The translations under genes and the position numbers were made by a program. DNA of 21,381 nucleotides from a virus (Duplodnaviria > Heunggongvirae > Uroviricota > Caudoviricetes): IMG/VR virus record IMGVR_UViG_2718217709_000001. One strand, written 5' to 3'. Below are positions 1,522 to 17,330 of the stretch, piece by piece. The notes under the pieces were generated by a model. It was not told the origin of the DNA and ran no database searches. It was given only the letters and a program-made list of their open reading frames with translations. The stretch's first letter is position 1. Every line of letters begins with the position of its first letter.

Positions 1522-1809
1522 TTACTGTCTCTGGCAATCTTTATCGCGATAACGCCTGAAGTACCCTCTCGCTTCCTCATCCATACCAAGAGCCGAATGA
1601 GTCCGCTTAACTGCCTGTCTTAAATCTCCGAATCTGTCTGTAGTTGCTGGTTGGCGTGCCGCCTTACGGATACATTCAGAGCGTCTGTTTGCTGCATGTT
1701 CACGTTCTTTATCGCCATCTGCCAGCATCATGACTTCTGCCCATCGTGCGGCAGCTCTCCGGTATAGCCCTTTTGACTCCAGCTCTTCAGCTTTCCTGTC
1801 CCTTATCAT
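1522..1809 (-). CDS. PerC-family transcriptional activator-like protein (95 aa)
   Basis: Small basic protein whose N-terminus (RKAEELESKGLYRRAAARWAEVM) resembles PerC/Pch-type regulators as recalled; GAGG RBS 6-7 nt upstream of the ATG. No search run. Confidence 0.5.
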   Translation of the reverse strand: MIRDRKAEELESKGLYRRAAARWAEVMMLADGDKEREHAANRRSECIRKAARQPATTDRFGDLRQAVKRTHSALGMDEEARGYFRRYRDKDCQRQ

Positions 1810-3249: not shown

Positions 3250-3675
3250 ATGTACCAAATGCCATGTCTTGGATATATGATGATTGCCATTCTAAACAAA
3301 GCTAAAGGGAGGGTTGGTGTGAGGGGGCAGGCAGTTATAATTATTTTGTTGGGTTTAATTGTCGCAAAGTTATACCCGACTTTATCGATGGTGTTTTTTG
3401 CCATTATTGGCGCAGCCATCTTTACTTATATCATTAAACATACCGCCTTGTGGTTCTATAAAATTGATATAGTTCAGAAGTTTGTACGTCCTGTGTCGAT
3501 GTTATTACTAGCATTAATACCAATTGGTGTTGCTTATGTAATTGATGTTTTTTACCCTTCGGACACTGAAAGGTGGTTGATAGTTTTGTATTGTTATATT
3601 GGTGTAGCTCTCTTTTGTGGATTTCATTGGTGTTTCGAAAAGATCAATGACTCTATTTCAAAGAATAAAGATTGA
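3250..3675 (+). CDS. Multi-pass membrane protein, AT-rich gene (start uncertain; GTG at 3319 has a strong AGGGAGGG RBS)
   Basis: Translation is dominated by hydrophobic helices (3-4 predicted TM segments); markedly lower GC than surroundings. Confidence 0.5.
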   Translation: MYQMPCLGYMMIAILNKAKGRVGVRGQAVIIILLGLIVAKLYPTLSMVFFAIIGAAIFTYIIKHTALWFYKIDIVQKFVRPVSMLLLALIPIGVAYVIDVFYPSDTERWLIVLYCYIGVALFCGFHWCFEKINDSISKNKD

Positions 3676-3694: not shown

Positions 3695-4020
3695 CTAGTC
3701 ATTATCTGGATCATTAGATAGCCAAGTAATGATGCCCAGTCTGGCGATGGTCCGTTTTTCCTGTTCAGGAAGAGAGTTAAAAAAACTCTTCCATTGAGGG
3801 GAGCGCCTGATACGTGAATCAACAATGTGCCCAGGCGCTTTTCCGTGTAGATTTTTTACTGCGCTCTGGAAGGCTGGCGAGGCAATTAATTTATCCGCAG
3901 CATCAGCCGCCCCTGCTCCACCAGCTAATCGAGCTTTACTCGCCAATCTTGCTCCAATATCAGCCCCAGCAATGGCTCCAAGCGATCCAAAATGAGCGCC
4001 TACCATCGTGCCTATTTTTT
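3695..4020 (-). pseudogene. 3' fragment of a 705-aa cargo gene split by the IS insertion (joins with 7604..9395)
   Basis: Reading frame continues exactly across the IS once the IS and one copy of the GAA duplication are removed (...KHI-QKIGT-MVGAHF...). Confidence 0.7.
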
Positions 4021-4077
4021 GAATGAACCGCCCCGGAAATCCTGGAGACTAAACTCCCTGAGAAAGAGGTAAACAGG

Positions 4078-4404
4078 ATGACTAAAAATACTCGTTTTTC
4101 CCCCGAAGTCCGTCAGCGGGCGATTCGTATGGTTCTGGAAAGTCAGGATGAATATGACTCACAGTGGGCGGCAATTTGTTCCATTGCCCCAAAGATTGGC
4201 TGTACGCCGGAGACTCTGCGTGTCTGGGTTCGCCAGCATGAGCGGGATACCGGGGGCGGTGATGGTGGGCTCACCAGCGCGGAACGTCAGCGTCTGAAAG
4301 AGCTGGAACGTGAAAATCGTGAACTGCGCCGCAGTAACGATATCCTTCGCCAGGCTTCCGCTTATTTTGCGAAGGCGGAGTTCGACCGCCTCTGGAAAAA
4401 ATGA
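4078..4404 (+). CDS. IS3-family transposase OrfA (HTH)
   Basis: 108-aa ORF ([22 protein letters not shown]...) recalled as IS629/IS1203-type OrfA; ends at the AAAAAA slippery run. Confidence 0.85.
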
Positions 4405-4818
4405 TGCCACTGCTGGATAAGCTGCGTGAGCAGTACGGGGTCGGACCGGTATGCAGCGAACTGCATATTGCCCCGTCAACGTATTACCATTGTCAGCAAC
4501 AGCGACATCATCCGGATAAACGCAGTGCCCGTGCGCAGCACGACGACTGGCTGAAGAGAGAGATACAGCGCGTATACGATGAAAATCATCAGGTGTACGG
4601 TGTGCGTAAAGTCTGGCGTCAGTTGTTACGGGAAGGAATCAGGGTGGCCAGATGTACAGTGGCACGTCTCATGGCGGTTATGGGACTTGCCGGTGTTCTC
4701 CGGGGTAAAAAGGTCCGTACGACCATCAGCCGGAAAGCCGTTGCCGCAGGCGACCGCGTAAACCGTCAGTTCGTGGCAGAACGACCTGACCAGCTGTGGG
4801 TGGCTGATTTTACTTACG
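4401..4818 (+). CDS. IS3-family transposase OrfB, 5' exon (interrupted by group II intron after ...[10 protein letters not shown])
   Basis: In-frame continuation is found at 7089; the intervening 2270 bp has group II intron boundaries. Confidence 0.75.
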
Positions 4819-5474
4819 GTGTGCCCGGAGTTCAGGGCGGGCATGGATGCTTAAATGAACCGCGAGTCTGTCTGGAATATTGAACCGGTAACTCACGATG
4901 AGAAACCCAACAATCCCACCGGGTGTGACGGTGGAGAACCTGAGCGGCAGTGACCTGCGGCATGCCCGCAGGGTGATGTAACCCGCTGACAACGGGGATT
5001 GAGGCGAGATCACTAAGCCGAGATGATCCTCAAGGTTAAGTACTGAAAGGCTGAAGAACATGAACCCGTTAATCCGCCTCTGTGGGTTGAAAACGTCACC
5101 ACGGCCTACGTGATCTGACAGGCCGTGCAGGAGGAACTGGCAGTAATACGTAAGCACTGCCGGTCGAAGGTGTTTTGACATGTATGCGAAACACCGGGGC
5201 AGCAGCGTCTATCACGCTTGCGTTGCTGACTTCTGCCAACTTGCGGCAAGCAAGGATAAAGAGTGCGACGGGCAGCCTCCTCAGTATGCCTGAGTCCAGG
5301 CAGGTAAACCGGGGAAGGTCAGCGACGGATGTTAAGGGGGCATGGCTCCGATGACGCGCTGGCTGGCGGAGCTTCCGTAGTAGTCCGCGATGGGGAAAGC
5401 CCATTACATGGCGAAGGGAAGCAGTTTGAATGTGTTTGCGACGTGAATTAACTGACCTAACGAGGTGAAGACCT

Positions 5475-6998
5475 TTGATAATCAGCGAAATGCAACGCAA
5501 GCTTGCCACATGGGCAGTCACCGATCCGTCCCTACGGATTCAACGGCTGCTGCGTCTGATAACACAACCAGAATGGCTGGCTGAAGCGGCGCGGATCACG
5601 CTTTCATCAAAGGGGGCCCATACCCCCGGCGTTGATGGCGTGAACAAAACAATGCTACAGGCCAGACTGGCTGTTGAGCTGCAAATCCTCAGGGATGAAT
5701 TACTCTCAGGCCACTACCAGCCCTTGCCCGCCAGACGGGTTTACATCCCTAAAAGCAACGGCAAACTGCGACCACTGGGTATCCCCGCGTTGCGGGATCG
5801 TATTGTTCAGCGGGCCATGCTGATGGCGATGGAGCCGATATGGGAGAGTGATTTTCATACACTCTCATATGGCTTCCGGCCTGAGCGCAGTGTCCACCAC
5901 GCTATCCGCACGGTGAAATTACAGCTCACAGACTGTGGTGAAACCCGGGGACGCTGGGTGATTGAAGGCGACCTGTCCAGTTACTTCGACACCGTACATC
6001 ATCGACTGCTGATGAAGGCTGTACGCCGCAGGATCAGTGACGCACGTTTCATGACTCTGCTGTGGAAAACCATCAAGGCGGGACATATCGATGTCGGTCT
6101 CTTTCGGGCGGCCAGTGAAGGTGTGCCACAGGGCGGTGTTATATCGCCGCTATTATCGAACATCATGCTGAATGAGTTCGATCAATACCTGCATGAGCGC
6201 TACCTGAGCGGGAAAGCCAGAAAAGATCGGTGGTACTGGAATAACAGTATCCAACGGGGCCGAAGTACGGCGGTCAGAGAAAACTGGCAGTGGAAACCCG
6301 CGGTGGCGTACTGCCGCTATGCCGATGATTTTGTCCTCATCGTCAAAGGCACCAAAGCACAGGCGGAAGCCATCAGGGAGGAGTGTCGGGGTGTGCTCGA
6401 AGGCAGTCTGAAACTCAGGCTGAACATGGATAAGACTAAAATCACCCATGTTAATGACGGCTTTATCTTTCTGGGGCACAGGATCATTCGCAAACGCAGT
6501 CGTTATGGCGAGATGCGAGTGGTCTCAACGATCCCGCAGGAGAAAGCCAGAAACTTCGCCGCATCGCTGACAGCACTGTTATCAGGCAACTACAGTGAAA
6601 GCAAAGTCGATATGGCTGAACAACTCAACCGAAAACTGAAAGGCTGGGCCATGTTCTATCAGTTCGTTGATTTTAAGGCCAAAGTCTTCAGTTATATCGA
6701 CCGTGTCGTGTTCTGGAAGCTGGCTCACTGGCTGGCCCGCAAATACCGTACAGGTATCGCTTCCCTGATGAGGTGGTGGTGTAAATCACCGAAACCGGGT
6801 CAGAGCAAAACGTGGGTTTTATTTGGTAAAACCAATCACGGCAAGCTCAGCGGCGAAATACTGTACCGGTTGGTGGGGCAAGGCAAGAAGCTGTTCCGCT
6901 GGCGGCTACCCGAAGGTAATCCCTATCTGAGGACGGAGACCAGAAACACGTATACATCGCGCTTTACAGAAGTGGCAATGGCGTTCGCCAGCATTTAA
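5475..6998 (+). CDS. Group II intron-encoded reverse transcriptase/maturase (no endonuclease domain evident)
   Basis: 507-aa ORF with RT motifs (GIPALRDRIVQRA, YADDFV) and a C-terminal maturase (X) region; no HNH-like Cys/His cluster at the C-terminus. Confidence 0.9.
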   Translation: MIISEMQRKLATWAVTDPSLRIQRLLRLITQPEWLAEAARITLSSKGAHTPGVDGVNKTMLQARLAVELQILRDELLSGHYQPLPARRVYIPKSNGKLRPLGIPALRDRIVQRAMLMAMEPIWESDFHTLSYGFRPERSVHHAIRTVKLQLTDCGETRGRWVIEGDLSSYFDTVHHRLLMKAVRRRISDARFMTLLWKTIKAGHIDVGLFRAASEGVPQGGVISPLLSNIMLNEFDQYLHERYLSGKARKDRWYWNNSIQRGRSTAVRENWQWKPAVAYCRYADDFVLIVKGTKAQAEAIREECRGVLEGSLKLRLNMDKTKITHVNDGFIFLGHRIIRKRSRYGEMRVVSTIPQEKARNFAASLTALLSGNYSESKVDMAEQLNRKLKGWAMFYQFVDFKAKVFSYIDRVVFWKLAHWLARKYRTGIASLMRWWCKSPKPGQSKTWVLFGKTNHGKLSGEILYRLVGQGKKLFRWRLPEGNPYLRTETRNTYTSRFTEVAMAFASI

Positions 6999-7003
6999 AT
7001 GGA

Positions 7004-7037
7004 GAGCCGGATGCGCTGAAAGGTGCACGTCCGGTTC
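7004..7037 (+). ncRNA. Group II intron domain V (catalytic hairpin)
   Basis: GAGCCGGATGCGCTGAAAGGTGCACGTCCGGTTC, about 50 nt before the intron 3' end. Confidence 0.7.
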
Positions 7038-7060
7038 GGGGAGGAGAGGCAGGGAAATAG

Positions 7061-7561
<501 letters not shown>

Positions 7562-7603
7562 GTTCACAGATAAAACACTCTCCAGGAAACCCGGGGCGGT
7601 TCA

Positions 7604-9395
7604 GAATGTGTTTTGCTGCTAGTTCGTATGGAGCTGTTACCCGATTAAATCTGTTTACAAACTCATTCAGCTTACCAGTAGATATTTCATGCGCTTTAGC
7701 ATTTTTTATTGCTCTGGCAACTTTGTATACATCATATAGTCCGCTCATTGTTTCTTTTGGCAAATGTTCAGCCAAAGTCTTTAGCTGTCCACTGTGTTGC
7801 AAGTTTTGCCACCAATCTGCGAAGCCAGATGGATTAAAGTCGGCCCCACGCTTCCCAGAGGAAAGCATATCTCTTAATGCTGTTCCTACTAGCTCCCTTC
7901 GCAATGTTCTTGATGGAGTATTTTGCATAATCTCACGAAACCCTCTCGCATCACCTTTTGCCATAGATTGAAGAGAATTCGTTACTTTATACGCTATATC
8001 CCCATTAAGTGTTTTCCCGCGAAGATTTACCATTTGCCTTTCTAAGTTTTTTCTCATAGCTACAAGGCGTTGTGCGACTTCGAAATCTCGCAAGTATCCA
8101 GTATTGGATAAGACAGATTTTTGGTCTTCAGCTAAAGCTCCATATAGTCTTGATAGCGCTTCTTTATCAGCATCTTTGTATGGCCCCTGCTTTTTATTTA
8201 GGGCATCACCAACTAAACGCCTTTGCCTGTTTAAATTTGCATACGTTAGGATGCTATCTGGGCCGGGGTTTATTGCTGTAAAAACTCGCTTTTCTATTGG
8301 GTCAAGATTATCCCACCCTCCTAAATCATCAGCGATTTTTTCCAGCATAGTGCTTGTGTTATTTGCTTCGACTTTTGTTCTTGGTGATAGAGCGGAATCA
8401 ACACGTTTATATAACTGATCACTACGGTTTTTTAGTGCTTCCATTCTACTATTTATCTGATAAATATATTTTTCGCTCATAGCTAACGCATCTGGCGCAC
8501 CAGCAACATCATCGATTATCTTGCCAGCACTAGAGGCTAATTCGCTTATTGCTTTATCTTCTTGAGCTTTTAACGCTGATCCTGTCCGTGACTTTAGGGC
8601 TTGCTCTACAGCTTGGTATTGCTCATTTCCTGATAAATGAGAAGGAAGAACTGAATCAACATGAAGCCTATTTGCAGCCTCAACAATTTCTTTCTGAGGT
8701 TTTAGATCTAGCCCTTCAAGCGAAGAGGCAAGATTTGGGTTGCCTTGTGCAGATAACTTACGAATTTTCTCTTCGGCAGGAGTAATCCCCTCAATATCTG
8801 GAATCGAAGAAACATTCTTCTTGGTTAATTTCCCAGCTATTTTATTAATTGCAGGGCCAGCAAGTTCGGCTACAGGGCCAGCCACAGCGCCAATAGCAGC
8901 GCCGGAAGCAACATCGCTATTTGTTCCATTGGCTACAATAGCCCCTTCTCCAGCACCAAGCCCTGCGGCGGCAGCCAGTCTTGCCGCCCCTTTGGGAACC
9001 TGAGAAATAATCCCACCACCACTAACAAATGGCGCTGCTTGTCCAACGAACTCACCAACATCTTGTGCGGTTGATGGTTTTGCCGCTAACTTCTGCTGTA
9101 GAGACTGAATTGCGGCTTGCTCTTCTGGTGTCATATCCTGAAACAGGCCAACACCTTTACCAACATCCATCAATCCACTGAGAACGCCATACATAAAACG
9201 GTCGAAACCGTTAGCATTATTAACAACATTTTCCTGTCTGGAATTTTCCTCTGGTGAAACCAAAGGTGATTGCTGCTGTTCTGGTTGGGCATCAAGCACA
9301 AAACCATCAGGAAGCTGTGAACTATCAGGAAACTGTGAGTTATCAGGTTGTTCATCGAGCACAAAACCTTCCGGTAAGATTACATTTGCTGCCAT
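7604..9395 (-). pseudogene. 5' part (597 codons) of the IS-disrupted 705-aa cargo gene: duplicated LPxGFVLDxQP N-terminal motif, Gly/Ala-rich segment, long helical region
   Basis: ORF 7368..9395 (-); residues after codon 597 are read through the IS right end and are not native; AGGA RBS upstream of the ATG at 9395. Confidence 0.7.
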
Positions 9396-10735
9396 TTTCC
9401 GTTCCTGTAAATGATTTTCTGACCAGTTTTAGGGTTGGTTGCCGTTGCGCCTTCTGATATTCCTCCGGTTGCCGCTTTTGCCTGTCCAGTGCCAGCCTGT
9501 GATGTAGGCTGCCCGGAAACATCGTCAAATAGCTTCGCTTTCCTTCTTTCAAGGCTTTTTCTTAGCCCCTGAGGAATAGTTTCTCCATATGTATCGAGAT
9601 ACTCGTCAACCTGCTGGTTAAACTGCTGCCCCATAGCATTGGCGTTGATTTTTGCGGCGTTAACAATGTTATCCTTTGCCTCCTGCGACAGGCCGTTTCC
9701 AGCATTAAGCTGGTCTATGTATCCTTTGATTTGTCCCCATATGCCATCAGACCGCATTACCTGAACCTGTTCGCCTTCACGAACGACTGACTGCGGGTCA
9801 AGAGATTTCATGTAGTTGAAGATAATCCCAAGTTGGGCAGCGCCAGTATTTACCTTGCTAAGGGCTTGCAGAGAGTTTGCCGCCGCTCTGACAGAGTTAT
9901 AATTTTTGCCAAAATTGGTAATGTCAGAATTTAATCCCTTAATTAAGTCTGCTGACGGCTTACCTTTTTGCCCCAGCTCCATTAGCTTCAATCCCATCTC
10001 ATCTGAGTGAATTTGTGCTCGCTGAGCCCTGTCTAGTTGAGCGTTCTGGATATTTGCCCATCCTCTCGCGTTCTCCATGTCAGCCTGACGCATACTTTCA
10101 TCCAGTCGCCCTTGCTCAAGTCGACGACCTTCCATTTGATCTTTGATATCGAAATACTTCTCATGACCGAGAGAAAACAGCGCCAGATTACCTGCGAAAT
10201 GCTGGAAGCCCTGCGGGTCATTAACCTGCATTTCAGCAATAGTTTCTGGAGGGATACCTAAACGACGCATCTCCTGCTCATTATCCATCATGAACCTGCC
10301 AAATGCGCCCTGACCAAGCGATGAGGCTACCTGTGCTTTGAGCGCCAGATTGCCATAATCATCCCTTTGAGCATCATCGACATAACTCATCCCTTTACGG
10401 ACTTCCTCAAACTCTTCTGGGAATGCTGTAATAAGATTACGCATCTGCTCCCTGTCACCGGACGCATAAGCATCTGCATAACCTTTCTGGAATGCCGCTT
10501 TACGTTCCTGCTGTTGCTGCTGCTTATAAATGTCAGCAACTCCAGCCAGACCACGAAGACCTGTCAGAGCAACGTTATTTGCACCTGAGCGAGCCAGTTC
10601 ATTGTTTTCGCGGATCAGACCAAGCGTTGCGTTAATGTCGCTTGCCTTTGGCGCATTCTCATTTTGCGCACCGATGCCAGCCAGAAAACCACCAGAATTA
10701 ATACCCTGTTGCCACGTAGCCATAAATTTACCCAC
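9380..10735 (-). CDS. Hypothetical Gln/Asn/Ala-rich, predicted coiled-coil protein (about 450 aa; likely ATG start at 10723)
   Basis: Long ORF with no Walker or nuclease motif seen; its end overlaps the start of the next gene by 16 nt; the track start at 10735 is GTG, ATG at 10723 follows the upstream stop by 4 nt. Confidence 0.65.
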   Translation of the reverse strand: MGKFMATWQQGINSGGFLAGIGAQNENAPKASDINATLGLIRENNELARSGANNVALTGLRGLAGVADIYKQQQQQERKAAFQKGYADAYASGDREQMRNLITAFPEEFEEVRKGMSYVDDAQRDDYGNLALKAQVASSLGQGAFGRFMMDNEQEMRRLGIPPETIAEMQVNDPQGFQHFAGNLALFSLGHEKYFDIKDQMEGRRLEQGRLDESMRQADMENARGWANIQNAQLDRAQRAQIHSDEMGLKLMELGQKGKPSADLIKGLNSDITNFGKNYNSVRAAANSLQALSKVNTGAAQLGIIFNYMKSLDPQSVVREGEQVQVMRSDGIWGQIKGYIDQLNAGNGLSQEAKDNIVNAAKINANAMGQQFNQQVDEYLDTYGETIPQGLRKSLERRKAKLFDDVSGQPTSQAGTGQAKAATGGISEGATATNPKTGQKIIYRNGKWQQM

Positions 10736-10901
10736 GTCCAGTTAAAGTGTAAGCCAGCGCCTTATCCATTAATCCCCGAGCAATTTCGTGGATCGTTGGC
10801 GCAACTCCTACCTCTGATTTTTTACGCTGCTCCTCCTGAATTTTCTTTATCGCTTCCATTTGCTTCTCACTTATCAATACTGGCTTTACTGAAATAGCCA
10901 T
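10728..10901 (-). CDS. Small ribbon-helix-helix (Arc/CopG-like) protein, 57 aa, first gene of the cargo operon
   Basis: Strong RBS AAGGGGGG 5-6 nt upstream of the ATG at 10901; beta-strand/helix/helix pattern (ISVKPVLISEKQMEAIKK...IHEIARGLMDKAL). The longer 100-aa track ORF would read through a terminator hairpin. Confidence 0.55.
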   Translation of the reverse strand: MAISVKPVLISEKQMEAIKKIQEEQRKKSEVGVAPTIHEIARGLMDKALAYTLTGRG

Positions 10902-10935
10902 AACGCCCCCCTTAGAACTGTATAAAACAACAGTC

Positions 10936-10941
10936 ATTATA
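10936..10941 (-). promoter_or_regulatory. Candidate -10 hexamer TATAAT for the cargo operon
   Basis: Perfect TATAAT on the minus strand about 35 nt upstream of the RHH start; no convincing -35 found. Confidence 0.3.
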
Positions 10942-10997
10942 GTTTCATAAAACGCAACATTCATCATTGTGATTGCAAAATATGAAACAAATAGCAC

Positions 10998-11030
10998 AAA
11001 AAAATGCCACCGTTCAGTAGCTGGTGGCAT
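10998..11030 (-). terminator. Rho-independent terminator-like hairpin (8-bp GC-rich stem, 11-nt loop, U7 tail) downstream of orf245
   Basis: Minus-strand reading ATGCCACC-loop-GGTGGCAT followed by TTTTTTT. Confidence 0.5.
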
Positions 11031-11394: not shown

Positions 11395-11499
11395 GCTGTA
11401 CCACCTGTACCACCATGTCACAAACCCTTGTGTGGCGCGGCCTGCAGGTGGTACAGGTGGGTAAAAATGACCTCTCCCCACCTGTACAGACCTGTACCA
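11395..11499. repeat. Iteron-like cluster A: five copies of (A)CCTGTAC(C/A) / GGTGGTACAGGTGG in both orientations
   Basis: Direct reading: 11396-11405, 11405-11414, 11447-11460 (inverted), 11480-11489, 11490-11499. Confidence 0.5.
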
Positions 11500-11504
11500 T
11501 TTAT

Positions 11505-12242
11505 TTAATTTTTACCCATAGCAGCACATAATCCCTTTTTTGAAATATTGAAAAATGCGTTCATTCTTCCCGCTGGCTTAACCTTGTAGCCGCTTGCCAC
11601 CATCGCCGCAATAAATGCTCCGTTGGGGATATAGTGCGGGTGATCACTGTGCTGGTGGTTTATCTGGTTATATCGCTCCACTTCATGCTTCAACGTGTCA
11701 GATGTGGGGTTATCCTGCGGGAAGCTCTCAATCTGGGCATTACTCATCCCGTTGTCTCTGATCCATCTCAGGCAGCTTTTCGCCGATACGATAAATGACG
11801 GGTTATCAAGCGGGTTTTCCCAGTCCGCATTCCGGTTGTGGAGCGCCAGTCCGTCAAGGTTAAATTGTGGGTATTCAGCGGTAATTACTGTCACTGCGTG
11901 GCGGATTTCAGTCTCGTCACAACATGGCTCATCTCCCACACCAGCAGGGTAATAATCTGAACCACCGGGACTGATACAGCGTTTACCACTGAAAGGCCAT
12001 TGCTTCGCCATTTCGGGTGTTGAGTGATTACCGTCGCTCCGTTCGCGCTGTGCCTCTGTCCACTGGCTGGCATATTCAGTAAATGAAACTCTTTGCCCCT
12101 GGCGCATCCAGTGCGCAATCATAATTAAAGTGCGTTCCAGACTTTGGATGTCGCCAGCATTCCCGCACTGTGTAGCGAAACTTTTTAATTCTTCGCGCTC
12201 CGTTCTGGTCATTCCCTGCAGTATGCAATAGTTATTGTTCAT
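11505..12242 (-). CDS. Hypothetical protein (245 aa)
   Basis: GAGAGGT RBS 6 nt upstream of the ATG; overlaps the end of orf76 by 11 nt; followed by the terminator at 10998-11030. Confidence 0.6.
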   Translation of the reverse strand: MNNNYCILQGMTRTEREELKSFATQCGNAGDIQSLERTLIMIAHWMRQGQRVSFTEYASQWTEAQRERSDGNHSTPEMAKQWPFSGKRCISPGGSDYYPAGVGDEPCCDETEIRHAVTVITAEYPQFNLDGLALHNRNADWENPLDNPSFIVSAKSCLRWIRDNGMSNAQIESFPQDNPTSDTLKHEVERYNQINHQHSDHPHYIPNGAFIAAMVASGYKVKPAGRMNAFFNISKKGLCAAMGKN

Positions 12243-12462
12243 GTTTTACCTCTCTGATTTCTGCTGCCATATCTGTTGGCTCTATACAGCCGTCCCGACT
12301 TGCCACGCAGGGAATAATGATTTCAACGGTATCGCCGTCAATACACATTTCAACATTCGCCCATGCCGCAATGGGTAGCCAGTCTGAACGCCCCTCAAAC
12401 CGTAGCTGCCAGCCAGAGGAAGAAGCTAACTGGCGCACTTTGTAAAATGGTGTGCTCATCAT
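12232..12462 (-). CDS. Hypothetical small protein (76 aa)
   Basis: GAGAGGG RBS upstream of tandem ATGs; first gene after the primase and iteron cluster B. Confidence 0.5.
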   Translation of the reverse strand: MMSTPFYKVRQLASSSGWQLRFEGRSDWLPIAAWANVEMCIDGDTVEIIIPCVASRDGCIEPTDMAAEIREVKHEQ

Positions 12463-16481: not shown

Positions 16482-17330
16482 GTGCCACCTCCATGCGGAT
16501 ACGACCAGCAAAAAAGCAGACGTGATCGCGCACCAGAGAACGGCGAGCATCGCGTTCAGACTCGGCAGCAATATGATGAATTTTGGCGGTAATTGTCGGG
16601 CAATCGCGGCGAACTGCGGCGATAATCCAGATAAATTGCGTTTTTTGGGTAGGGGTAGTAGCCAGCATGTGGCAGCCTCCTTCAGATAGCAGGTTACGCT
16701 ACCACCGGAAACGCCAATTTCGCTGGTGGTAGCCCAGACAGGGTTGGCGTAACCGGCTCTGAAGGATACCGGCGCTTCCGAAGAAGCCCCCGCCTGAGCC
16801 ACCATTGATTGACAAAGGCGCTGGATTATACACCAACGCCCAAAAAATGGGTGAGTCAGACCTACGACATAAAAAAAGACGCTTGGCGCGTCATATGTCG
16901 CCTTCAGAATTTTTAGGACGCCAATCCCGGCACCCGTTTTATGAGGTGCCTTATAACCATAAACCGTGTTGCCGCATAACGGCAAGCTCTTTTTTATGGA
17001 CTCCGAAAACTCACTATTGGAAGAACCAGAAGCACAGTACATCGCGCTCATTTCGTTAACGTCACGCGCGTGGACGAAGGTTTTTGTGGAGTCACTACAC
17101 GAGCAGAGAAAGCCATCTACGACCAGAAATTCTCTGGCATAGCCGCTGACCTTCTCAACGCTAACACCATCGACCGTAATTTCTGACATAGTTAAGGCAT
17201 CCGCTCCTACCACCAGCAAATGATAAACTTTGCTTGTATCTGCTGTATTAATGTCTGACTTTGCTGTCATATTGCTGGATTTTGGCGACATACCAGCCAG
17301 TGAAAATATCTTCTTCTGGGCGGTTAGCAT
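16263..17330 (-). CDS. Long open frame (355 aa); 5' part looks like a genuine gene, 3' extent doubtful
   Basis: GGAGG RBS and ATG overlapping the upstream stop by 4 nt; the frame stays open to 16263 but overlaps two well-formed small genes with poor codon usage there. Confidence 0.35.
16474..16668 (-). CDS. Hypothetical small protein (64 aa, MLATTPTQ...)
   Basis: Strong RBS AAGGAGG 7 nt upstream; all eight Arg codons are CGC/CGT and Leu mostly CTG, whereas the alternative long frame uses CTA/TTA/AGG/ATA here. Confidence 0.45.
   Translation of the reverse strand: MLATTPTQKTQFIWIIAAVRRDCPTITAKIHHIAAESERDARRSLVRDHVCFFAGRIRMEVAHD

Follow-up and report, generated by a model that had tools for sequence, protein, structure and literature searches.

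The window examined here is a stretch of 21,381 nucleotides (IMG/VR virus record IMGVR_UViG_2718217709_000001; Duplodnaviria, Heunggongvirae, Uroviricota, Caudoviricetes) that represents part of an Escherichia coli chromosome and contains an island of ∼17 kb between dinD and yicC. Three genes of the same direction, here designated A, B and C, are located on the minus strand, as confirmed by the map of open reading frames (ORFs) and their translations. They had been recognized in an earlier reading of the sequence (hereafter the original prediction), which described the two large products, B and C, as uncharacterized. Judged from homology and synteny, B is an ejection (E) protein of the gp20 type of phage P22 and C is the ejection protein of the gene-16 slot. 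Gene C is interrupted in the window by an insertion, and its two parts are listed separately among the features of the operon.

10728–10901, minus strand: gene A, the 57-residue leader gene of the operon (ORF call and homologue starts)
9380–10723, minus strand: gene B, a 447-residue gp20-type ejection protein (Pfam, PHROG and BLASTP)
7607–9395, minus strand: 5′ part of gene C, codons 1–597, a gp16-position ejection protein (PHROG and synteny)
3695–4023, minus strand: 3′ part of gene C, codons 598–705, with a Gly/Ala-zipper-like segment at residues 601–640 (frame reconstruction and motif scan)
11006–11021, minus strand: intrinsic terminator insulating A–B–C from the primase-side genes (terminator scan)

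Residues 12–219 of B match the Pfam family Inj_translocase (PF16928), which is described as the 'DNA/protein translocase of phage P22 injectosome' (Pfam), with an E value of 2.5e-73 and a score of 246.8 bits (cut-off 29.7), and B also matches phrog_917 (4e-132). Residues 1–212 are 54% identical to P22 gp20, and over its full length B shares 75% identity with gp20 of Lederbergvirus Kapi1 and 93.5% with a gp20 encoded on a metagenomic P22-like contig. The RefSeq label of gene B is already 'phage DNA ejection protein'. Homologues of B are found at the canonical gene-20 place in the phages Kapi1 and E212 and in two further loci (L005 and L006). In the window, B is not flanked by homologues of genes 7 and 16: a gene-16-type gene follows it, there is no gp7, and no homologue of any other P22 or Kapi1 virion gene was found in the window besides B and C.

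C aligns with phrog_6704 along its whole length (1.4e-174); it also matches phrog_770, 'DNA transfer protein' (1.2e-50). Its best full-length relatives on metagenomic contigs (P0002, 79% identity; P0005, 62%) directly follow the genes for P22_CoatProtein, P22_Tail-4, Phage_stabilise, DUF2824 (gp14), P22_gp7 and Inj_translocase. A profile search of genome contigs with C returned only ten loci and no island contexts outside E. coli; eight of these loci had enough flanking sequence to be judged and all eight are P22-like prophage virion modules. In Kapi1, E212 and the two metagenomic P22-like modules, the C homologue sits in the gene-16 slot and overlaps gene 20 by 16 nt, as C overlaps B. BLASTP detects no similarity between C and P22 gp16 (E value of 0.48), which is consistent with the published identity of only 22–26% among the gp16 types of P22-like phages (PMC10883804), and the Pfam family Phage_P22_gp16 (PF26808) does not match C.

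B and C thus resemble the gp20 and gp16 of P22 and other lederbergviruses in the gp20 N-terminal domain of B, in the adjacency and overlap of their genes and in the Gly/Ala-zipper-like segments of C; they differ in being encoded by a satellite that has no portal, coat, gp4/10/26, gp14 or gp7. The description of the two proteins as uncharacterized does not hold, and confident homology of both to phage virion proteins is the outcome that the original prediction had itself named as speaking against its view of the operon as a costly accessory module, for example an anti-phage or helper-interference system. Its statement that the large proteins carry no catalytic signature agrees with a PADLOC-DB v2 scan of the three operon proteins and seven encoded nearby, which gave no meaningful match to a known defence system.

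Gene A is preceded by the Shine–Dalgarno sequence AAGGGGGG, and its start methionine is common to homologues from five genera; its product is probably a ribbon–helix–helix (RHH) DNA binder. A 100-residue ORF starting from 11030, which is annotated in some RefSeq records, extends across the terminator and is probably spurious. The start of gene B is most likely to be the ATG at 10723 (447 residues, as RefSeq has it in locus L001) and not the GTG at 10735. Genes B and C overlap by 16 nt, with C starting at 9395 and broken at 7606/7607. The original prediction correctly described this overlap, the Gly/Ala-rich stretches of C and the motif LPxGFVLDxQP, which is present twice in C (at residues 7 and 28). 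The LPxGFVLD motif is also found in the consensus of 13 C homologues; on this comparison, the duplicated motif and the Gly/Ala-rich segments are features of the family, and the segments look like glycine-zipper membrane segments. Sequence searches of the PDB with A, B and a profile of C gave no match, and tblastn searches of 50,697 phage genomes with A and with the 141-residue membrane protein encoded next to the operon (discussed below) gave no significant match.

The upstream terminator and the lower GC content of the operon (0.40–0.49, modestly below much of the island) were likewise borne out by the terminator scan and the GC values. The proposal that the operon has its own TATAAT-containing upstream region is correct in part: a perfect TATAAT lies past the terminator (11021–11006), upstream of A, but no consensus −35 box was found there and the promoter scan gives no σ70 promoter, only the −10 box being good.

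Host island and distribution of the cassette

The island begins with a tyrosine integrase, a 216-residue protein, AlpA (PF05930; 26.4 bits, cut-off 21), a 143-residue protein, an AntA antirepressor, DUF4222 and an Ash/Icd-like region. Three small genes, a 200-residue protein, a primase with Zn-ribbon, Toprim and DUF5906 domains and two hypothetical genes follow, and the island ends with A–B–C, a convergent membrane-protein gene, variable cargo and PerC. A terminal integrase, AlpA, a primase, a size within the range 10–20 kb and the absence of capsid, terminase and lysis genes are the features expected of a phage-inducible chromosomal island (PICI), and B and C are the sole virion homologues in the island. 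The original prediction was therefore right in describing the island as satellite-like.

Its closest described relative is EcCIMP1, a PICI of E. coli MP1 with the helper phage vB_EcoP_Kapi1 (Pick, Stadel & Raivio, ISME J 2025, PMC11773190). Experiments on EcCIMP1 showed excision, circularization and transduction solely with the P22-like helper Kapi1 (PMC11773190). We assign the window island to the EcCIMP1-like family because its core proteins are 84–99% identical to those of EcCIMP1 (143-residue protein, 99%; AntA, 97%; Ash, 84%; 200-residue protein, 89%; primase N-terminus, 85%), gene A is 92% identical and the promoter and terminator are nearly the same. The backbone and gene order are also shared, with A followed by ejection genes, the envelope-protein slot and PerC. 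On this evidence the island is an EcCIMP1-like PICI of E. coli at another attachment site and a satellite of P22-like podophages; the family itself is already known, and the window island is a further member of it.

The two islands differ in several respects. EcCIMP1 is situated at tRNA-Thr/proA, whereas the window island is at dinD/yicC, and the C-terminal half of the primase is DUF927 in EcCIMP1 and DUF5906 in the window. The EcCIMP1 cassette consists of A, gp14 (DUF2824, 81% identical to Kapi1 gp14), homologues of gp7 and gp20 and a 906-residue gp16-type protein bearing an SLT domain, whereas the window island has gp20 and gp16 only, and the ejection-protein alleles of the two islands share only about 25% identity. 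The authors noted EcCIMP1_017–019 as resembling 'DNA transfer proteins and DUF2824' (PMC11773190). Furthermore, gene C is disrupted in the window, and helper-dependent induction and transfer are known for EcCIMP1 only.

The distribution of the cassette was assessed by megablast against 5426 complete E. coli genomes with a query coverage of at least 80%. Gene A with its upstream region is present in 454 genomes, the window-type cassette in 85, a second, Sf6/N7-type cassette in 315 and the gp14–gp7–gp20–gp16 version in 181, which are probably largely a subset of the 315. The small gene A followed by an ejection-protein cassette thus occurs in ∼400 of the 5426 genomes (∼7–8%). The second cassette has the same A and a gp20 that is identical only to residue 212, beyond which the alleles are wholly different; it continues with a 701-residue Sf6-gp13/N7-type gp16 that is unrelated to C. 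At least three swapped allele sets occur, and no fewer than three integration sites are in use among islands with the cassette (dinD/yicC, tRNA-Thr/proA and one close to pao). The operon had been placed at a distal cargo end of the island; it is instead in the conserved post-primase position of this PICI family, and the cassette is kept in roughly 88% of the members.

A survey of related islands for intact copies, as the original prediction had suggested, found intact cassette ORFs free of insertion sequences (ISs) in most sampled islands. The islands of strains SF-166 and 2014EL-1346-6 are examples of IS-free copies. One exception is E. coli UTME-9 (locus L020, 6335–9084), in which an independent IS3-family insertion lies in the gp20 gene and the gp16 gene is truncated. 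In E. coli CFS3292 (locus L024, 8311–9155), A is followed by a 223-residue HEXXH (M41-like) peptidase and there is no ejection cassette. Comparison of islands with one another gives a ratio of nonsynonymous to synonymous substitution (dN/dS) of 0.08–0.26 for both B and C, which are under purifying selection. The first ∼90 nt of gene B are 94–96% identical to the gp20 genes of resident prophages. As a crude estimate of how often the island occurs together with P22-like prophages, a second gp20-like match was seen in seven of 23 sampled island genomes, compared with a background of ∼8.5% (Fisher p = 0.002), although these matches may not be prophages and the figure is not relied on here.

Island contexts outside E. 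coli were reached through homologues of gene A. Serratia islands with the same backbone contain A, a gp20 homologue and an SLT-gp16 homologue, without gp7. In Erwinia persicina islands of the same backbone (loci L029 and L030, 9001–12665), A is followed by a 108-residue protein and a 1050-residue tape-measure protein (phrog_1107, E = 0), and no tail gene was found in these islands besides the tape-measure gene. Klebsiella quasipneumoniae loci (L031 and L032) carry A, a 671-residue SLT-containing tape-measure protein (phrog_2276, 2e-199) and a Dit-like gene, after which the contig ends, and in Raoultella loci A precedes a 605-residue transglycosylase/tape-measure-like protein. From the contents of these Serratia, Erwinia, Klebsiella and Raoultella loci, the slot behind A is filled repeatedly by virion proteins of the kind that carry DNA across the envelope.

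Insertion in gene C

The insertion that separates the two parts of gene C comprises 3580 bp in total and is flanked by a GAA target duplication (4021–4023 and 7604–7606). It has the following components.

4024–7603, plus strand: IS3-family element (IS629/IS1203-like), 1310 bp, with 25-nt terminal inverted repeats (inverted repeats, junctions and RefSeq annotation in FORC_031)
4819–7088, plus strand: group II intron, 2270 bp, inside orfB of the IS (Rfam, 5′ end and exon junction)
5475–6998, plus strand: ltrA, the reverse transcriptase (RT)/maturase of the group II intron, a 507-residue RT ORF (ORF map and FORC_031 annotation)

The terminal inverted repeats of 25 nt begin with TGAACCGCCCCGG, and an ALIL frameshift pseudoknot is found in the IS at 4359–4475. 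The intron begins with GTGTG, its domain V/VI is recognized by Rfam (Intron_gpII, 7002–7088) and its removal at the exon junction would restore the sequence FTY-V-STWQGF in orfB of the IS. The original prediction described an IS with an intact 3-bp duplication. The duplication and the IS3-family ends are indeed present, but the disrupting element is a composite, in which the IS3-family element is itself broken by a retroelement.

Removal of 4024–7603 together with one copy of GAA yields an uninterrupted frame of 705 codons, with the break at codon 597/598. The reconstructed gene C does not differ by a single nucleotide from its intact counterpart in E. coli O6:H16 2014EL-1346-6, in agreement with the earlier description of a clean and recent split. 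The exact junction between C and the IS occurs in three of the 5426 genomes (FORC_031, 254D-1 and 360D-1), and the halves of gene C that flank the insertion match intact alleles identically, which points to a clonal event of very recent date. The insertion costs C its last 108 residues, including the 601–640 Gly/Ala zipper, and the A–B–C module is dead in the window through the split of gene C. Nothing indicates that this loss was selected as the knock-out of a costly module, as had been proposed. No second gp20-like locus was seen in FORC_031; its island may therefore lack a cognate helper, and the loss of C may simply be neutral.

Proposed role in genome delivery

Homology, synteny, conservation and selection are observed for B and C, and from these we infer each step of the function proposed here. 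There is, in our judgement, about an even chance that the operon is a virion-protein module by which the satellite equips hijacked virions with genome-delivery proteins of its own. Induction of the helper prophage would lead to excision and replication of the island, and the A promoter would be switched on, probably in dependence on an activator because it combines a perfect −10 box with a poor −35 region. B and C would then be loaded into helper-built procapsids alongside helper gp7, aided by helper gp14. After adsorption, both would be ejected to form a trans-envelope channel for the passage of island DNA into the next cell, with B, as gp20, providing the periplasmic conduit and C, as the protein of the gene-16 slot, the inner-membrane part. 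A would be a small, probably RHH, DNA-binding protein that heads the operon.

The satellite would bring gp20 and gp16 as a matched pair, these being the P22-like delivery components that are the most variable, that work only when paired and that are targeted by SieA. Foreign E proteins are known to be incorporated into P22 virions, gp7 is conserved and interchangeable, and Sf6 gp20 and gp16 function in P22 only if they are swapped together, with 5e10 plaque-forming units compared with <1e4 for single swaps (PMC10883804). In both gp16 and gp20, the mutations that allow escape from SieA lie in the C-terminal region (PMC10883804). The island family keeps the gp20–gp16 pair, often without gp7 and gp14, and its variants differ in the C-terminal half of gp20 and in gp16. 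The likely benefit would be delivery that is independent of the helper's allele, for example into cells with SieA-type exclusion; whether escape from superinfection-exclusion (Sie)-type systems in helper lysogens is the selective benefit itself we regard as rather doubtful. EcCIMP1 does not lower helper titres (PMC11773190), in keeping with proteins that serve the satellite and do not sabotage its helper.

A wider reading, which we put forward tentatively and would not expect to hold in full, is that the enterobacterial PICI superfamily (int–AlpA–AntA–Ash–primase) carries helper-matched delivery proteins in the A-led slot and so escapes Sie-type exclusion in just those lysogens that a satellite has to enter. 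P22-like helpers would be matched by gp20 and gp16, with or without gp14 and gp7, and siphophage helpers by a tape-measure protein; the corresponding exclusion systems would be SieA, acting on gp16 and gp20, and HK97 gp15, acting on the tape-measure route. The tape-measure genes of the sister islands fit the same logic of own delivery as gp20 and gp16, and titles cited by He et al. (Nat Commun 2024, PMC11364771) link HK97 gp15 exclusion to tape-measure delivery.

Several observations weigh against delivery as the function of the operon. The authors of the EcCIMP1 study go no further than suggesting a role in packaging or morphogenesis, and the Kapi1-borne transfer that they report is rare, at about 5e3 particles per ml (PMC11773190). 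Most of the island carriers examined in that study are without an obvious cognate P22-like prophage (PMC11773190), as is FORC_031. The promoter of the operon is its own and is insulated by a terminator, and the location beside pri is one at which defence genes, for example Tai, are found in other PICIs (PMC11364771). The unrelated HEXXH peptidase behind A in one island means that the slot can take other cargo. The independent IS hits in the window and in UTME-9 imply that the cassette is dispensable for the host.

The promoter region behind a terminator and the place next to pri, a documented immune region of PICIs with Tai genes (PMC11364771), also favour an exclusion or interference module, in which B and C, perhaps together with the adjacent membrane protein, would block the assembly of incoming P22-like channels or poison helper virions. 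EcCIMP1 adds to the superinfection immunity against Kapi1, for which PADLOC and DefenseFinder were negative (PMC11773190); a true SieA homologue is found right after the gp16 gene in some sister islands; and mismatched gp20 and gp16 are non-viable in P22 (PMC10883804), so that mixing could poison particles. However, poisoning would strike the satellite's own particles too, and EcCIMP1 neither cuts Kapi1 titres after induction nor protects non-lysogens (PMC11773190). B and C are, moreover, phage-type alleles of full length, with purifying selection acting all along them, and not truncated decoys, and the immunity phenotype could stem from the neighbouring envelope-protein slot instead of from B and C. 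We therefore consider an exclusion module to be possible but rather unlikely.

Delivery must also be weighed against the view that the cassette is a passenger remnant, gained by recombination between island and helper and persisting without a function for the island. The near-identity of the first ∼90 nt of B to gp20 of resident prophages points to ongoing exchange, and the cassette is IS-disrupted in the window and UTME-9 and wholly missing from one island. An intact cassette in ∼400 genomes, represented by at least three allele sets and occupying at least three integration sites, is not what such a remnant would be expected to leave; the low dN/dS between islands, the same arrangement in Serratia and the tape-measure analogues in Erwinia and Klebsiella islands add to this, and we regard a remnant as improbable. 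A novel anti-phage or abortive-infection system, comprising an RHH regulator and two new helical proteins and having no relation to virion parts, would accord with the location of the operon in a satellite and with the lack of any catalytic or defence-family match, but is very improbable in view of the confident homology and synteny of B and C with P22-like ejection proteins.

Capsid size, terminase specificity, late-gene control and tail hijacking are known targets of piracy by satellites, and CpmAB of the Staphylococcus aureus pathogenicity islands (SaPIs), Sid of P4 and Rpp of E. coli PICIs are satellite proteins that influence the assembly of helper virions. The A–B–C module resembles such virion-protein modifiers in its position after the replication genes and in encoding proteins that would act on helper virion assembly. 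SaPIbov5 Ccm is a capsid-protein homologue encoded by a satellite (PMC8569155). Ccm, CpmAB, Sid and Rpp act on capsid size or terminase, whereas B and C would belong to the genome-delivery step. The tail-assembly-inhibition (Tai) genes of He et al. (PMC11364771) share the PICI region adjoining pri; B and C differ in being ejection-protein homologues with no PADLOC match, a distinction drawn from homology and the PADLOC scan.

A literature search for satellites with ejection or tape-measure proteins yielded the EcCIMP1 paper only. Satellite-borne envelope-crossing proteins have so far been noticed only in passing, as the 'DNA transfer'-like hypothetical proteins of EcCIMP1, and to our knowledge the explicit assignment of gp20 and gp16 (with gp14 and gp7), the swapping of cassettes, the sieA-type neighbour slot and the tape-measure equivalents are not described in the searchable literature. 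The module is present in ∼7–8% of genomes, is swapped where P22-like phages vary and SieA acts, is under purifying selection and is replaced elsewhere by tape-measure proteins; for these reasons the survey suggests the testable idea that satellites control their own entry step. If true, the wider reading would add a new category of molecular piracy, at DNA entry and not at capsid size or packaging. For the window itself, the practical consequence is that the operon can be annotated and that this copy is a recent IS-inactivated allele.

Envelope-protein slot and other island features

A small gene converges on the operon at the end of gene C.

3250–3675, plus strand: 141-residue (or 131-residue) protein with four transmembrane (TM) segments, convergent, a candidate exclusion protein (predicted hydrophobic segments and position)

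Four hydrophobic segments are predicted in the 141-residue protein. The gene order in P22 is 20–16–sieA, with sieA convergent (Leavitt et al., mBio 2024, PMC10883804), and the island slot is at the same place, so that the window likewise has gp20, gp16 and a convergent small multi-TM protein. The window protein differs from P22 SieA in lacking sequence similarity to it; its identification as SieA was rejected on the basis of a BLASTP E value of 2.1, the absence of the motif FxRYPxEAxxFNK and the lack of a PHROG match. By its position and topology it is a candidate exclusion protein.

The small envelope protein differs in each island variant, as seen from comparison of the slot genes of the window (3250–3675, plus strand) and of loci L021 (4879–5493), L019 (14632–15330) and L017 (7555–7992). 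UTME-9 and KC-Dl-1 encode a different four-TM protein of 129 residues, MIN6 a secreted protein of 145 residues and EcCIMP1 a lipoprotein. Some sister islands have a real SieA homologue directly after the gp16 gene, and in one of them the 204-residue slot protein matches SieA (E value of 5.6e-7) and phrog_7745 (4.4e-4). Several slot proteins are alike only in their first ∼14–33 residues (MIAILNxAKGRVGV). From these comparisons, the slot has the appearance of a site at which exclusion-type genes are swapped, and it is a candidate source of the superinfection immunity of EcCIMP1.

The dinD-proximal end of the island carries a PerC-family regulator (1522–1809, minus strand), the EcCIMP1 homologue of which is 53% identical and is reported to repress locus of enterocyte effacement (LEE) expression in Citrobacter rodentium (PMC11773190). 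In the 'ash family'/Icd-like ORF, Rfam identifies a C4 antisense RNA (16722–16809, minus strand; 79.9 bits) and an isrK RNA (16872–16949, minus strand; 60.5 bits), and their location beside the AntA antirepressor suggests an RNA immunity switch of the P1/P4 type. Between the DUF5906 primase and the A operon lie genes for proteins of 245 and 76 residues (11505–12462, minus strand) without a family match, which are specific to the window island variant and are missing from the variants with a DUF927 primase. The interval between the 245-residue gene and the A operon contains a cluster of direct and inverted repeats, GGTACAGGTGG and CCACCTGTACC (11396–11499), a candidate replication origin or operator. 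At the corresponding place EcCIMP1, with its different primase C-terminal domain, has other iterons (TTGAACCAAC...).

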